Shown: positions 51,301 to 57,300 of the stretch, in pieces
Numbering within the stretch: the first letter of the stretch is position 1
How the letters are laid out: each line of letters starts with the position of its first letter
Program-made: the position numbers
Assembly: GCA_947467145.1 (NCBI GenBank)
Contig: CANIGJ010000002.1
Span: 13,423 to 77,422, forward strand
Direction: 5' to 3'
DNA from: Rhodospirillaceae bacterium
GTDB taxonomy: Bacteria > Pseudomonadota > Alphaproteobacteria > Rhodospirillales > UBA2165
DNA length: 64,000 bases

Positions 51301-54300
51301 ATGAACGCATCCAAGGAAATGGCGGGCGGGCGCGACGCGCTTCTCGATGCGAACGGCATTAATCTCGGCCAGTCGCTTCCGCTGCATCCCCACAATGCCG
51401 TTCTGCAACTGTGGCTGGAGCTGGGTGTCGTCGGAGCAGCTGTCTATTGCATCGTTCTCGTTGCATTGGCCAGCTTGGCCGCTCGCGTGCCAAACGCGCC
51501 ATTGGCGCTCGGCCAGTTCGTTTCGGCACTGGTCATCGCAAACGTCAGCTACGGTATCTGGCAGGCTTGGTGGATTGCCACGCTATGGTTCGCTGTCGCC
51601 ATGAGCGTGCTGCATCAGCGTGGGTCCGCCGCCGACTCGCGATGGTAATCCGAGGCTACTTGTAGTAGCCGCCAAGCCGGCGGCCACGATTGCCGATCTG
51701 ATCGAAAAGCCCGGCCGCATTGCCCGCGGCGCGGCGCAGTCCATCGAGATTTCCGCGATAAAGACTCGAGCTCAGATTGAATATGATCTGGCCGAACAGC
51801 GCCCAGGCAAAGGCGAGCCGCGAGAAGTGCGGAAATTTCGAGACGAAATAAACCCGATTGACGACCTGTTGACGGCCGATCATGAACTGGGCCGAGGATC
51901 GGACTGGGCGACTATAGTGATTGACCGAGGCGGTGCCGACCACAAACAGACGGTGAGTCCGGTTCACGCGGTGACTGAAATCTACGTCCTCAAGATAGCC
52001 GTGGCCGAGATACCAATCATCATAACGATATTGTTCGATCACCTGCCGCCGCCAGACTGTCGCGCCGCCGTAAAGCCATTGGGTCTCTGTCAACCTGGTC
52101 AGCGGCGGGATCTGGGATTGGAAGCCGGACGCCAGCAAACGGCCCGGCGCGGGATGATCGATCAGGAAGAATCGACTGATGCGTGCCGCGGTTGCGATCG
52201 GTTGGTTGAGGATTGCGAAGCCGGCGCCGCCCGTGTCCGCTGTCGCCGTCGCCCAGAAATCGAGCATGGCTTCAGAGGCATTGGGTTCGAGGACGAGGTC
52301 GTCGTCGAGAAAACCGACGAGATCGGCGTCCGGCGACAATGCATCGACGCCGGCATTGCGTTGTGCCGCAAGCGACGGCGGGAAAACGCGGACATACGTG
52401 ATCGACAGATTCGGGAATTCTGCGATCACATGTTCGATCGTTGGATTGCTGCCATCGACCACAATGATCTGATGGGCGGCCAAGGTCTGTCCGGCGATGC
52501 TGCGCAGCAGAGTCCGCATGTCGTCAGGGCGATCCTTCGTCGGTACGATGTAAGCGAGTTTCATGATGGTTACAAAAAGACCGACATTGTTTCATCGCCG
52601 GGTGGCGTCAGGTATTCGTGGATATAGGACCGCAGCGCGGCGCAGTTGGCACGGAATGCCTCCGGTGGCATCGCTTCGATTGCCCGGAGGGCGGTGACGA
52701 TGTTCTCACCGCTGCGCGCGCGTGGCGAAGTGACCGGTGCGGCAAATAGAGGGTCGTCTTCAATCGCATCGTCGAGCACGAATTTGATCGCCGGCACACC
52801 CATATAGACCGCGCTGATGGCTGCGGTCGATCCGATATAAATGACTGCGTCGGCTTGCGAAATCGTATCGCTCAACGACCCATGCGGAGCCTCGTCGAGT
52901 TGGCCAATGCCTGGCCCGATATGAACCTGCGCGTGCGCGGCGATCACGCTAAGCGGCAACGACGGATGAGCGCGGAGCATGAATTTACACTCGGGCATGG
53001 CGCGCGCGGCGGTTTCGATCGGCGCGAGCGCGGCACTCACCGACGGGATGCCCTCCAGCAGCACGAGTACAGTCTTGATCGGTCGCTGTATGGCGTCGCG
53101 CAGGGGCAGCTTGGTGATGTCGGTGTCGCGAAGTGCGCATGCGGCGGCGACATGATCGGGATCGTGCTCGCCCAATGACAAGAATACGTCACGTGATCTT
53201 TCGCCGGTGCAGATGATGCGGTCGGGGGCTGGCCGCAATTCGTCCTCGCCGGCACCGATATAGTTCTTCAGATGCGAAGGAAGGACGGCGCAATGCAGGT
53301 ATCCGAGCGCGGATCGATTCGCTTCACGTGCGGCAACGTCGCATGCATGTTCCCACGGATTGTTCTCGTAAGTATGAATCACGCGCGCCGACGGCAGGCG
53401 TTGGAGCAGCCGTCGCGTCGCGCGTTCGATGAGAATGCCAAGAATGATGTCGCCGCGGGCATGGCGCATCTCGCCGGCCATTCGGCGCGCTATGGCGGGG
53501 GCAGGGGGCACGAAACGTGATCGTATTGCGCTAAATGCGGCCGTGAACAAGTCGCCGAATCCGACGAAGTCGCCGAATGTCACCACGCAAGCCGATCGGG
53601 TGTTCGCTAGGTGTCTCACGGTGGTCCAGGGCAGGCCTTCGACTAGGCCACAATGCACGACATGTTGACCGCGTGCTTCAAGGAATGCCACCAACGGGCC
53701 GTAATAGCTGCTCGTGTAGAAGCCGTTCGCATCGACAGCGGCGGCATTGACCACCGAAAGGAGGACGACATCGGCATCGGCGGGCAGTTGGTCTCTTTTG
53801 CCGAACAACCGGCTGGCGAGGATCCATAATGCTAGCCAGGCAACCGATTTCACGAACCGCAGCCAAGCTCCGCCAGCGCGGGCCGGTGTTTCATGCCCGG
53901 TAGCGTCTAACTCCCATAGCGATGTATTGAGGCGGTCGCGCGATGCGAGCCAAGTATACCACCACAGCCGATTGCGCCCGTTCGCTCGGGTCGCCTCACC
54001 GACGATATCGATGAAGCGCTGAGCCTGAGGAGAATAAACATAGCGCGGCGCAAGGCCGCGGTTGTCGTTATTCCGCGGCGATTTCGGCAAATTTACGATG
54101 ATCGACGTCGGCGACTACTTTTGATTGGCCGTATTGGCGGCCGGGGATGTTCGTCCAGACGAGCGATTCCGGAACGTCGTATAGCTGGTCGCATCCTTTA
54201 CAATAGGGGATGTCGTCGAACCGGCCTTCGCGATGGGCGGCACGCAGTTCGTTATAGGCCGCGCCGCCGACGACGTCGGCGATCGACGCGTTGTCGAGAT

Positions 54301-57300
54301 GGCCGAGCACGCCTTGCGAATCCTTGCCGAGTACCATGCAGCACGCCACGACCGCGGCGCTATGGCCTTCGAGGCCGCCGGCACGGACTTGAAGCAGCGG
54401 CGAGAAGGGGCGTCCGCAAGAACGTTTGGCGCCAGGATCCTTAATCATGATATCGCGCGAATATCCGATCTCGACGCCGTTCTGGCCCGCCCAATTGTGC
54501 ATCAGCCAGATTTCCGAGAACGCGCCGGTATAATCGACCCAGTTCTGCTTATATTGCTGGATCTCGTAATCCTTTTGGGCGAGATCGGTGATCAGGTGAT
54601 ACATGTGGACTTCGGATTCGCCGCCAAGTTCGCGGTTGAGCTCTACGAAGCGCTTCACATTATCGCGGACCCTTTGATAGGCATCCTGGCTCATCCAATG
54701 GGCATAGGATTCGCGATCGTAACCGTTGCATGAAATGCGCAATACGTTGATGCGCGCTTCGATCAGCCGGCGCGACATATCTTCGGTCAGCCGGAAGCCA
54801 TTGGTGAAGGAGATGCACCGCAGGTCTTTCTCGCGGACGTAACGAACATAATCTGGAAAGTCTTTGTTGAGTGTCGGTTCGCCCGAGCCATGCAGCGAGA
54901 CGGTATCGAGCCCGTACTGTGCGGCGTCGTCCACGATCTTCGTGAATACTTTGAAGGGAAGCTTTTTGAGGAATTCTTTCTCGCGACCCTCTGCCTGCGG
55001 ACACATGGGGCAGGCATAGTTGCAGCCGCCATTGAGTTCCAGGTCGAGCTGCTTGATCTCAATATGTTCAGGTACCGGCATCAGCGTTTCTCTTCGTGCT
55101 GCCTACGAAGCCATGACGGCTTTAATGGCAGGATGCAGATGAAGCAGGCCAACAAGCTTGCCGTCATTGGAAGTAACCGGGAGATCCCAGATTTGTTTCG
55201 CTTCCATCGTGGCAATCGCGGTGCTTAATGAATCTTCATTTCCGACGGTTGTCGGCGTTCGGCTTGCATGCGTAATGATATCATCGACGAACAACGCGGC
55301 GAACGGCTTCTGGTCGCGCAACAGCATACGCCGAACGTCGCCGTCGGTGAAGATGCCCATCAGCACGCCGTCGTCACCGATGACACACGCAATTCCCAGC
55401 CGATGCCGCGTCATTTCTTGAAGCGTTGCCTTGAGCAGTGTGGATGGCTTCACGACCGGTATACGGTCGATCGGCAGCATGACGTCAGTCACCCTTAATT
55501 TAATCATCGAGGTGGACACGGTCTTCACCCCACTTCTCTAACAGCTCGAGACGAAGCTCATGTGCGGCCTTGGCGTGCGCCAGGACGCGTTCCAGATACT
55601 GAATATCTAGCACGGTGTTCGCGTCCGACAATGCATTCGGAGGATCATCGTGCACTTCCATGAATAAAGCGTTGATGCCGCAGGCCGCCGCGGCGCGGGC
55701 CAAATATGGGATATATTCACGCTGTCCGCCGGAGATATCGCCCATCGAGGTCGGCATCTGGATGGAATGTGTGCCGTCGAAGCACACAGGATAGCCTGTT
55801 TCCATCATAATCGGGAAAGACTTCATATCGTTGATCAGCATGTTGTAGCCGAAGAACGTGCCGCGATCGGCCAGAAGAATCTGGTCGTTTCCGGCGGCCT
55901 CGATCTTGCGGACGCTGTTTTTCATGTTCCAGGGACTCATGAACTGCCCCTTTTTCAGGTGGATCGGGCGCATGGTTTCAGCTGCAGCACGCAGGATCGT
56001 CGTTTGACGGCAAAGATAGGCGGGAATCTGCACGAGGTCGCAAACCTCGCCGGTCGGCTTGGCCCACGCCGCGTCCGAAAAATCGCTAACCACTGGGACG
56101 CCATGTTCTTCGCGTACCTCGGCCAGGATCTCCAGGCCGGGATCCACACCCAGACCATGGAACGAATCCGGTGAAGACCGACAATCCTTGTCGTAGCAGG
56201 ATTTGTAGATCCAGGGGATATTCAATTTGTCGCAGATCTTGCCGACCCGGTCCGCCATCATCATGGCATGATCGCGGCTTTCGATCGCGCAGGGGCCGCC
56301 GAGAAATGCGAGCGGCTCGGTGCCGCCGATCTTCACGTGGCGTACCTTATTGTCGTATCCGACGGTGATGGTTTTAGGGGTCATAAAAGTCTACCCATAT
56401 AGCGGGGCTTTTCTATCACGTTCATCGCAGAGACGCACACCTTTCCCGATTATGGGTCATAGCGCCAAATTGGCGCACCGTAACAGCTACTCACGCTTAC
56501 ATAGAGAAACTGGCGCGCCACCGCGCTGTTAATCAACGGCGTTACCACATGATATGAATTATTGCAGTTCAGAAATAAGGCACCCCGGTTGGGTTTGGGA
56601 CGCAAGGTCTCCACGACCTCGAGTTCGTTCTGGCCGGGATATCGTCCGCACTCGTGAAGCGGCTTCATTTGCTTGAGCTTGAGAACCTGGAAATCGCCGC
56701 CCTCTCCGCCGGTTTCCCCGAAATAAATCAGCATCGCCGCCAGCTTGTTGCGATTGTCCGTGTGGGGTTCAGTCGCATAGCCGTTCTGCGCCCAGGCAAT
56801 ATCGAAATCGATGCATAACGAACCGGAATCGAACGCCGAGAGAATCCGGTCGATCGCATTGGTCACGCCGACCTTCCGCATCAAGCGCCGCAACACTGTT
56901 TGTTCCGGCGTCGTGATGTGATCGCGAAAATTCCACCGTTTCGCATCAATGCTGCAACCTTGTTCCGGCAGGATTTCGCCGAACAAGCCCAATACCGTTT
57001 CGACAAAGCGCCGGGAATTTATGTCATGGAAGAATTCGCGCCATGCTGGCGATTGTTGCATGAATGCGCGAAACACCCTATCTCCGCGCCCGAGATTGAT
57101 TCGGCTGGCACGCCCCCCGGCGAAGGCCTGCTTACGGTTAGCGGCAAAAACAGACCCATCCGGAAATTCACGCTGAAGCTCCGTGAAAAACGCGGGGTCC
57201 AACATCATGTCGGATGCAAGATGAGGGTACGGTGTGAGCTTAACGGCGTACTTGTTGAAGGTGATCATCATTCTTTCATCCCACACGCCGAATCAATCGG

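Follow-up and report, generated by a model that had tools for sequence, protein, structure and literature searches.

Why would a synthase of the 3-deoxy-octulosonic acid (Kdo) pathway be encoded together with only the tail of the isomerase that feeds it? The question is raised by three consecutive minus-strand genes in a stretch of 64,000 nucleotides from a Rhodospirillaceae bacterium (GenBank assembly GCA_947467145.1, contig CANIGJ010000002.1, positions 13,423 to 77,422), called the window here. The Kdo pathway has been studied thoroughly and serves as an antibiotic target, and KANRS counts as a hallmark motif of its synthase. In the window the motif reads KDCRS, the next gene encodes a pair of CBS domains resembling the end of the arabinose 5-phosphate (A5P) isomerase KdsD/KpsF, and the third encodes a radical S-adenosylmethionine (SAM) enzyme. 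The synthase is called KdsA* below.

55500-56384, minus strand: KdsA*, a divergent paralogue of the metal-type 3-deoxy-octulosonate 8-phosphate (KDO8P) synthase, 294 aa, KDCRS for KANRS (Pfam and NCBIfam)
55103-55519, minus strand: stand-alone KdsD-type CBS pair, 138 aa from GTG 55519; other possible starts at 55528, 55507 and 55480
54068-55081, minus strand: radical SAM enzyme, 337 aa, with one probable auxiliary iron-sulphur cluster; an optional gene of the cassette

To judge from its conservation across genomes, KdsA* is a distinct, widespread clade, and the CBS protein is its obligate partner, held under purifying selection. We lean, if only modestly, towards reading the pair as the core of an accessory, horizontally spread cassette. 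It would make a Kdo-type sugar, activated with cytidine monophosphate (CMP), for a surface polysaccharide, while the CBS partner would sense a ligand.

The synthase and the CBS protein

The synthase matches the Pfam family DAHP_synth_1 (PF00793, E 6e-65). Among NCBIfam models for KdsA it scores 338.5 bits against NF003543 (cut-off 242) and, narrowly above the cut-off of 314, 322.9 bits against TIGR01362; with NF009109 it reaches 252.8 bits, under the cut-off of 457. The motifs GGPCAIES, DGTHSIQ, FMEVH and LSDA are all found and align with N26, H202, E239 and D250 of the E. coli enzyme. The first-pass annotation had seen in them the four metal ligands of the Aquifex-type class, and this is borne out: C32, H206, E243 and D254 (window numbering) are invariant in 120 of 120 subfamily members. 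Cys, His, Glu and Asp form the ligand set of metal-dependent KDO8P synthases (PMC3052366).

Residues were compared in an alignment of these 120 members with 95 other KdsA sequences. The residues that bind phosphoenolpyruvate (PEP) and the sugar phosphate (K61, K66, R69, S70, R126, K144 and R174) are invariant in the whole subfamily, as are D101 and Q209. Expressed in E. coli numbering, K55, K60, R63, S64, D95, R120, K138, R168, H202, Q205, E239 and D250 are kept in all 120. Five positions that are 82-95% conserved elsewhere are changed, again in E. coli numbering: S57C, A61D, N62C, R70H and H97S. At a sixth changed position, E167D, E. coli itself has Asp.

Two of these changes turn KANRS into KDCRS, a replacement that had been noticed at first reading and that proves characteristic of the subfamily: every one of the 119 readable members has the form DKD[C/G/S]RS, while 118 of 119 KdsA representatives outside it have the Asn of KANRS. 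In the N. meningitidis KDO8P synthase, Asn57, Arg58 and Asp90 lie against the A5P part of bound ligands (PMC6650799). Since the catalytic residues are all kept and conserved positions are changed, we conclude that KdsA* is probably a catalytically active enzyme with a remodelled sugar pocket.

Related spellings of the motif occur outside the clade. The KdsA representative P0379 has KDWRS, thus also without the Asn, and a few others have KDNRS or KDNRT, which is the Ala-to-Asp change alone. These proteins may be intermediates or independent variants.

The subfamily stands apart from other KdsA proteins. A protein search with the window synthase returned more than 120 subfamily sequences at 77-89% identity. 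Across many phyla the members show 72-89% identity, compared with at most 51% to any other KdsA. In a library clustered at 50% identity there is one full-length representative of the clade (510 bits), and the next protein follows at 298 bits and 51% identity; two short fragments in the same library likewise carry KDCRS. Carriers are found among Alpha-, Beta-, Gamma- and Deltaproteobacteria, Magnetococcales, Leptospira, Prochlorococcus, Flavobacteriaceae, Nitrospirae and SAR324, and also in Gemmatimonadota, Lentimonas and Enterobacterales. The plasmid-borne KdsA proteins found, alphaproteobacterial ones included, are all less than 60% identical to KdsA* (the 15 listed, 46-49%). No member of the subfamily was found on plasmids, in 5,426 E. 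coli genomes searched at the DNA level, or in viral contigs. NCBIfam 20.0 has no model for the clade or for its CBS partner.

KdsA* proteins also share a conserved C-terminal tail of 20 residues (RLeLL.kwGED.VH; window 55500-55560) that is absent from canonical KdsA. The CBS gene already starts within its last codons, and the tail is a candidate docking segment for the CBS partner.

The partner itself shows two CBS stretches in Pfam. Its best NCBIfam matches are KpsF (TIGR00393, 69.4 bits), KdsD (NF008141, 62 bits) and GutQ (45 bits), and the best unrelated family scores 32 bits. Only positions 155-268 of the TIGR00393 profile are covered, and the cut-offs of 203.7 (TIGR00393) and 505 (NF008141) are not reached. 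The motifs GIFTDGDVRRML and LVGLLHLH, on which the comparison with KdsD had first been based, are present. Sequence matches in the PDB are led by CBS pairs of isomerases, 4o9k (E 1e-14), 3fna (2e-12) and 3k2v (5e-11), with the next entry at 7e-8. By these bit scores and E-values the protein is indeed closer to the KdsD/KpsF tail than to generic CBS proteins.

Its AlphaFold model (mean confidence, pLDDT, 89) matches 4o9k best, and 3k2v and 3fna nearly as well; fold scores and E-values similar to those of the A5P isomerase CBS pairs are also reached by generic CBS proteins, CBSX2 and MJ0922 among them. The ligand of 4o9k is presumably CMP-Kdo. We know of no settled function for the CBS pair of KdsD. 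The family of the window protein shares GIFTDGDxRR and GxLHxH with KdsD and has invariant features of its own, QKPF.ALF.DD, which contains a three-residue insertion, and IWDLPV.

The start of the CBS gene can be placed in several ways. From the first in-frame start, GTG 55528, the open reading frame (ORF) covers 55103-55528, encodes 141 aa and overlaps the synthase gene by 29 nt. GTG 55519 gives 138 aa and a 20-nt overlap, and with ATG 55507 the overlap shrinks to 8 nt. On identical metagenome contigs, gene callers took ATG 55480, which gives 125 aa and leaves 19 nt between the genes. Most homologues are 138-139 aa long (138 is commonest), and their N-termini, MSTxx, align with VSTS of the window protein, which points to GTG 55519, 138 aa and a 20-nt overlap. 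Of the original description, a 141-aa protein consisting of a CBS pair and joined to the synthase by 29 nt, the CBS pair stands; 138 aa is the more likely length, and the 29-nt overlap holds for GTG 55528 only. The minus-strand order of the three genes and the 21 nt between the CBS stop and the ATG of the radical SAM gene were both confirmed.

The catalytic half of the isomerase, the SIS domain, had been reported missing from the CBS gene and its neighbours. A tblastn search of the 64-kb window with E. coli proteins, including the SIS part of KdsD, agrees with this: it found no SIS domain, second kdsA, kdsC or kdsB-like gene, and the precomputed Pfam calls on the same DNA contain no SIS domain either.

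Related loci and the radical SAM enzyme

Evidence that the short CBS gene is functional can be provided by its behaviour in other species. One genome per GTDB species was scanned, which gave 140 synthase matches, and 80 of the loci were examined, with all their ORFs clustered into families. The CBS ORF lies directly downstream of the synthase on the same strand in 79 of the 80 loci, and the exception ends at a contig edge. The overlap between the two genes is similarly small across loci. In the 79 loci the CBS ORF always stands alone, its last 130-145 residues ending in GLLHLHPA. A protein search with the window protein gave 1605 relatives, and the best 120 of the 1605 are all 124-153 aa long. 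The ratio of nonsynonymous to synonymous substitution (dN/dS), taken from unsaturated pairs, is 0.05-0.12. Just two of the 80 loci contain SIS domains.

Conserved adjacency and low dN/dS together indicate that the CBS ORF is functional and no remnant. The possibility that it is a pseudogene left over from kdsD, which had been named at the outset as the observation that would undo the proposal, is rejected on these two grounds.

The cassette can thus be defined as a KD[C/G/S]RS synthase followed directly by a CBS pair of 130-145 aa ending in GLLHLHPA, and the window contains one. Around this core the gene content varies. A KdsB-like cytidylyltransferase is present in about 60 loci and a KdsC-like phosphatase in about 22. 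Examples of the former score 252 bits against NF003952 (cut-off 193) and 163 bits against TIGR00466 (cut-off 155), and an example of the latter 159 bits against TIGR01670 (cut-off 107). About 45 loci, including those of Leptospira, Prochlorococcus and Pelagibacteraceae, have an HpcH/HpaI aldolase with two short-chain dehydrogenases/reductases (SDRs), one D-mannonate oxidoreductase-like and one glucose 1-dehydrogenase-like, often with a NanM-like O-methyltransferase nearby. This HpcH-SDR-SDR module stands between the CBS and KdsB-like genes (L017, L021, L025, L027, L028 and others). The TIGR04326 family occurs in 38 of 81 loci, usually at the cassette end, and the TIGR04417 (PFTS) family in 21, usually upstream of the synthase. 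Many loci have PseI and PseH-like genes beside the cassette. The genes around it bear out the ulosonic-acid setting that had been suspected and form a surface-glycan cluster. Every KdsA* carrier seen belongs to the diderms.

The radical SAM gene is found in only about 18 of the 80 loci, mostly in Rhodospirillales and Magnetococcales, and usually after a KdsC-like phosphatase. It and the HpcH-SDR-SDR module are largely alternative and never occur together in one locus; full-length loci with neither are L023, L035, L044, L047, L048 and L053. The three genes of the window had been read together as one variant pathway. As a conserved unit this survives for the KDCRS-type synthase and the CBS protein, usually joined by a KdsB-like gene, and fails for the radical SAM family.

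The radical SAM protein matches PF04055 with 63.2 bits (cut-off 29.5), and its CNYACPMC is a CxxxCxxC motif. Its match to SPASM (PF13186) is weak, 24.3 bits with a cut-off of 21.5. The best of 41 matches to defined NCBIfam families has 83 bits (cut-off 380), and all lie far below their cut-offs. A search for its family gave 719 relatives, the best 120 at 62-85% identity. Invariant Cys residues are 20, 24 and 27 (the SAM cluster), 89, 222, 247, 248, 294 and 297. Of these, C222, C247/C248, C294 and C297 fit a single auxiliary cluster of twitch-like type better than a seven-Cys SPASM domain. The CxxxCxxC motif and the C-terminal Cys set described earlier stand, and a full SPASM domain looks less likely.

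Its best sequence matches in the PDB are BtrN, DesII and BlsE at 14-19% identity. The model (pLDDT 89) resembles DesII, BlsE, SkfB and BtrN most, three of which are sugar-modifying. We read the protein as a probable sugar-tailoring enzyme, optional to the cassette. A 65%-identical homologue is encoded at L091:10001-10990 with no KdsA* within 10 kb, so the family is not tied to the Kdo-type cassette. That homologue adjoins a cupin, a sugar C-methyltransferase (Methyltransf_13/14), nucleoside diphosphate (NDP)-sugar epimerases and a second radical SAM/SPASM protein.

Some loci are compact. At L092:7444-12746 the order is KdsA*, CBS, KdsB, KdsC, radical SAM and a tetratricopeptide repeat (TPR) protein of 567 aa, and the same cassette is found in L016, L033, L043, L050, L066, L067, L079 and L086. 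It lies amid housekeeping genes (Rrf2, a periplasmic binding protein, rplM/rpsI), with synteny kept in about ten marine Rhodospirillaceae. In Leptospira noguchii serovar Panama the KdsA* copy lies among PseI, PFTS and an IS3 element, and an IS3-family transposase stands inside the HpcH-SDR-SDR module (L027:14329-15144) and is followed by a truncated PhyH-like ORF.

Whether KdsA* is the synthase of the housekeeping pathway can be decided where both are seen in one genome. In L035, a metagenome-assembled genome of Acetobacteraceae (5373-12522), KdsA*-CBS-KdsB-KdsC is preceded at a distance of 2 kb by a canonical set, made up of kdsA (KANRT), kdsB and a full-length kdsD that has both the SIS and the CBS domains. 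A sulfotransferase/AlgX-like gene stands between the two sets. In L020 a kdsD lies 2 kb downstream of the cassette. Devosia sp. UYZn731, an isolate, carries the KdsA*-CBS pair twice, on two different contigs. In Leptospira a core kdsA belongs to the lipid A gene set (PMC9736851, PMC4758666). The coexistence in L035 and the two copies in Devosia imply that KdsA* is not the housekeeping gene; it is a paralogue, as shown in genomes other than the window's own.

The operon in the window

The trio lies in the middle of a longer series. From 63960 down to 51656 every gene is read from the minus strand, and neighbours either overlap slightly or are separated by no more than 65 nt; the radical SAM gene, for instance, overlaps the gene at 52570-54090 by 23 nt. 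Single strand and tight spacing suggest an operon of about 12 genes. Its other members, in the order of transcription, are these:

63250-63960, minus strand: PseF-like CMP-sugar cytidylyltransferase (CTP_transf_3, 82 bits; TIGR03584, 159 bits, below the cut-off of 205.7)
62531-63238, minus strand: methyltransferase (Methyltransf_11; Pfam and NCBIfam)
61791-62528, minus strand: hypothetical protein, 245 aa, in the operon with KdsA*, without a Pfam or NCBIfam match
60004-61794, minus strand: ATP-binding cassette (ABC) exporter (ABC_membrane and ABC_tran), 596 aa (precomputed Pfam)
58343-60007, minus strand: PFTS-motif polysaccharide biosynthesis protein (TIGR04417, 118 bits, cut-off 100)
57276-58346, minus strand: methyltransferase (Methyltransf_23; Pfam)
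56450-57286, minus strand: protein directly upstream of KdsA*, with a weak 2-oxoglutarate/Fe(II) oxygenase match (24.8 bits, below the cut-off of 27)
52570-54090, minus strand: TIGR04326-like surface carbohydrate biosynthesis protein, 506 aa (weak match, 41.5 bits, cut-off 250)
51656-52564, minus strand: family 2 glycosyltransferase (GT2), 302 aa (precomputed Pfam, Glycos_transf_2); the same family occurs in 14 loci

Further genes precede the operon in window order, the last two groups below being sugar-modifying.

50401-51648, plus strand: Wzy_C membrane protein of O-antigen ligase/polymerase type (precomputed Pfam on the identical contig L001, mapped over)
48255-50291, minus strand: PMT_2 (ArnT-like) membrane glycosyltransferase (precomputed Pfam, L001, mapped over)
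44190-46629, minus strand: SxtJ, DUF5989 and carbamoyltransferase trio, in the lower-G+C stretch of the window
38531-44181, plus strand: two NDP-sugar epimerases/dehydratases, a GHMP kinase, a NUDIX protein and a fused zinc alcohol dehydrogenase/GFO-IDH-MocA oxidoreductase, also in the lower-G+C stretch

The G+C content is 0.55-0.61 from about 34 kb to the window end, compared with about 0.64 over the first 34 kb. The PseF-like transferase is the only nucleotidyltransferase detected in the gene cluster and is likely to be the one that activates the ulosonic acid. No sequence relatives in the PDB were found for the 278-aa protein upstream of the synthase or for the TIGR04326-like protein. Among the related loci the 278-aa protein has a homologue only in L011, and it did not match c14 or c16, two unnamed families found ahead of the synthase in other loci. 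Profile comparison of the TIGR04326, PFTS and TPR-protein families gave no sign of homologous transferases.

Pathway, alternatives and meaning

From these genes we infer each biochemical step of a possible pathway. KdsA* would carry out a metal-dependent condensation of PEP with a pentose 5-phosphate to an octulosonate 8-phosphate, the pentose being A5P from the host KdsD or a close relative. The CBS protein, presumably descended from the C-terminal half of KdsD/KpsF and translationally coupled to the synthase, would be its obligate partner, most probably sensing a nucleotide or CMP-sugar and tuning the pathway. From gene order, coupling and co-conservation we infer that the two proteins are in physical contact. 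The phosphate would be removed by the KdsC-like phosphatase in many loci and, for the window, presumably by a host enzyme. Tailoring would fall here to the BtrN/DesII-like radical SAM enzyme, through oxidation, epimerisation or a similar reaction, and to several methyltransferases; in most other loci it would fall to the HpcH aldolase and two SDRs. Activation with CMP would be performed by the PseF-like transferase here and by the KdsB-like enzyme elsewhere. The TIGR04326, PFTS and GT2 proteins would then build the sugar into a glycan, for the ABC transporter to export.

The identity of the substrate is the point on which the alternatives divide. Carriers are diderms with A5P of their own, and their KdsB- and KdsC-like partners resemble true Kdo enzymes, which suggests that the substrate is A5P or something very close to it. 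That these partners score above curated cut-offs argues for a very Kdo-like product. Several points weigh on the other side of the Kdo-cassette reading. Given the loss of the near-invariant Asn, the substrate may be something other than A5P. With no KdsB- or KdsC-like gene in the window, and the PseF-like protein below its cut-off, activation and dephosphorylation are assumed for this locus. The compact cassette of the ten or so marine Rhodospirillaceae might be their sole Kdo line, or else a self-contained glycosylation unit. No KdsA-CBS fusion was found among ten longer KdsA representatives scanned, which leaves the physical link unsupported from that side. In the literature, finally, no published description of the KdsA*-CBS pair was found.

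Fusions of another kind do occur among the KdsA representatives: P0247, P0254, P0261, P0274, P0315, P0342 and P0349 are ordinary KdsA proteins fused to a KdsC-type haloacid dehalogenase (HAD) phosphatase or to a methyltransferase domain. The HAD phosphatase can sit on the N- or the C-terminal side.

The remodelled pocket favours the idea that KdsA* may take a different aldose phosphate, and the strongest competitor is built on this. KdsA* may have switched to a central aldose phosphate such as ribose 5-phosphate, or to the opposite face of the aldehyde, so that the SIS isomerase became dispensable and was lost and a new octulosonate stereoisomer is made. Replacement of the KANRS Asn by Cys, Gly or Ser as a feature of this clade only, five further altered positions around the KANRS loop, the contact of Asn57 with the sugar part of the ligand in the N. 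meningitidis enzyme (PMC6650799), and the lack of a SIS domain in the window and in 78 of the 80 loci all agree with it. The phosphate-binding Arg, Ser and Arg and the length of the motif are unchanged, however, which speaks for a substrate still like a pentose 5-phosphate, and the Kdo-like quality of the KdsB- and KdsC-like partners tells against a switch too. If the cassette did not depend on A5P, one would expect it in monoderms as well, whereas all carriers are diderms with an A5P supply, and a full kdsD lies near the cassette in L035 and L020. We regard the switch as possible, though clearly less probable than a Kdo-type cassette. A little more doubtful still is a version that makes the CBS protein a separate allosteric subunit of a two-subunit synthase, with the remodelled pocket of KdsA* (Asn to Cys, Ala to Asp, His to Ser) allowing it to form a non-Kdo octulosonic acid from a central pentose phosphate or with inverted stereochemistry.

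The remaining alternatives concern the partners and the status of the synthase. The CBS protein could be co-transcribed and yet act elsewhere, on the cytidylyltransferase, a transporter or gene expression; its fold matches include CBS pairs with unrelated partners (CBSX1/2, AcuB, the CBS domains of CcpN), and the missing KdsA-CBS fusions would fit as well. That is improbable, given that the gene always follows KdsA* directly and overlaps it, while genes for cytidylyltransferase, transporter and tailoring vary or are absent, and that the protein is most closely related to the CBS pairs of the isomerase supplying KdsA. Somewhat harder to believe is a replacement of KdsD by the CBS protein acting together with the accessory enzymes (radical SAM here, HpcH aldolase and SDRs elsewhere), as a new route to the aldose phosphate. 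The compact cassette does contain every Kdo step but the isomerase, and the two accessory modules are largely alternative and never share a locus, but the six loci with neither module, the close radical SAM homologue outside any KdsA* locus, and the fact that CBS pairs are not known to be catalytic all oppose it. There is hardly any case left for a housekeeping kdsA followed by a decaying kdsD fragment. The synthase passes the NCBIfam equivalog cut-offs, annotation would read kdsA, and the window contains no other kdsA. Against this, the CBS ORF is conserved at 130-145 aa under strong purifying selection in 79 of 80 loci, with its 1605 relatives in the search; the synthase shares 47-49% identity with the canonical KdsA of Alphaproteobacteria, to which its nearest relatives belong, and is no closer to these than to others; it sits in the lower-G+C part of the window among surface-glycan genes; and KdsA* stands alongside canonical kdsA and kdsD in L035. 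The suspicion that it might simply be the organism's only kdsA is contradicted by that coexistence, by its separate conserved clade and by its context.

Comparison with known systems places the Kdo-type cassette more exactly. With the canonical pathway to CMP-Kdo (KdsD, KdsA, KdsC, KdsB) it has in common the synthase fold and the catalytic, metal, PEP and phosphate residues, the KdsB- and KdsC-like genes of many loci and a CBS protein homologous to the KdsD tail. It differs in lacking the SIS domain, in KDCRS and the five further changes, in forming a separate clade, and in lying in variable surface-glycan clusters, with extra tailoring enzymes and beside canonical genes. A second Kdo set for surface polysaccharide is not new in itself: kpsF and kpsU are capsule-dedicated Kdo gene duplicates in E. 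coli group 2, and Burkholderia kdsA2 and the plasmid kdsA-kdsB of Rhodobacterales are comparable. In these capsule-linked duplicates KANRS is kept, KpsF retains its SIS domain and no CBS protein is free, and the plasmid copies are the ones 46-49% identical to KdsA*.

A module that binds a ligand and gives feedback control is known from type I-beta 3-deoxy-arabino-heptulosonate 7-phosphate (DAH7P) synthases of the same superfamily (PF00793). There it is an ACT/ferredoxin-like or chorismate mutase domain fused to the enzyme, whereas the candidate regulator of KdsA* is of CBS type and a separate polypeptide. To our knowledge no regulatory module has been found in KDO8P synthases. The radical SAM enzyme is nearest in sequence and fold to BtrN, DesII and BlsE, with CxxxCxxC and a C-terminal Cys set that would fit one auxiliary cluster, as in BtrN; it differs by its low identity to them, the extra invariant Cys89 and the lack of a match above any curated family cut-off. 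Nonulosonic-acid pathways (PseI/NeuB with PseF/NeuA) also combine a PEP-dependent synthase with a CMP-transferase in a glycan cluster, and the window transferase is PseF-like, but the window synthase is of the KdsA/DAHP type, not of the NeuB type, and a NeuB/PseI gene is absent from the window. Neither a KDCRS-type synthase nor a free CBS protein of the KdsD type is part of any of these nearest systems.

A widespread two-gene unit of KdsA* and CBS protein appears to be undescribed. Such a clade, departing from KANRS and travelling with a free CBS protein of the KdsD type, suggests that ulosonic-acid biosynthesis has an unrecognised branch or else a new form of regulation. The scale is considerable, with 140 matches among GTDB species genomes and 1605 relatives of the CBS protein, many of them probably of this family. 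Public annotations such as '3-deoxy-8-phosphooctulonate synthase' and 'arabinose-5-phosphate isomerase' or 'CBS domain protein' hide the difference and may mislead metabolic reconstructions.

If the two-subunit, non-Kdo version were true, KdsA* with its CBS protein would be the first member of the DAHP/KDO8P synthase superfamily with a separate allosteric subunit, and a new family of ulosonic acids would be present on Prochlorococcus, Pelagibacteraceae, Leptospira, Legionella and many bacteria of soil and sea. Since abundant ocean bacteria and a pathogen serovar (Leptospira noguchii Panama) are among the carriers, recognition by phages and grazers, and also serotyping, could be influenced by the sugar. 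A CBS pair freed from its isomerase also offers a direct route to the ligands and the role of the CBS domains of KdsD.

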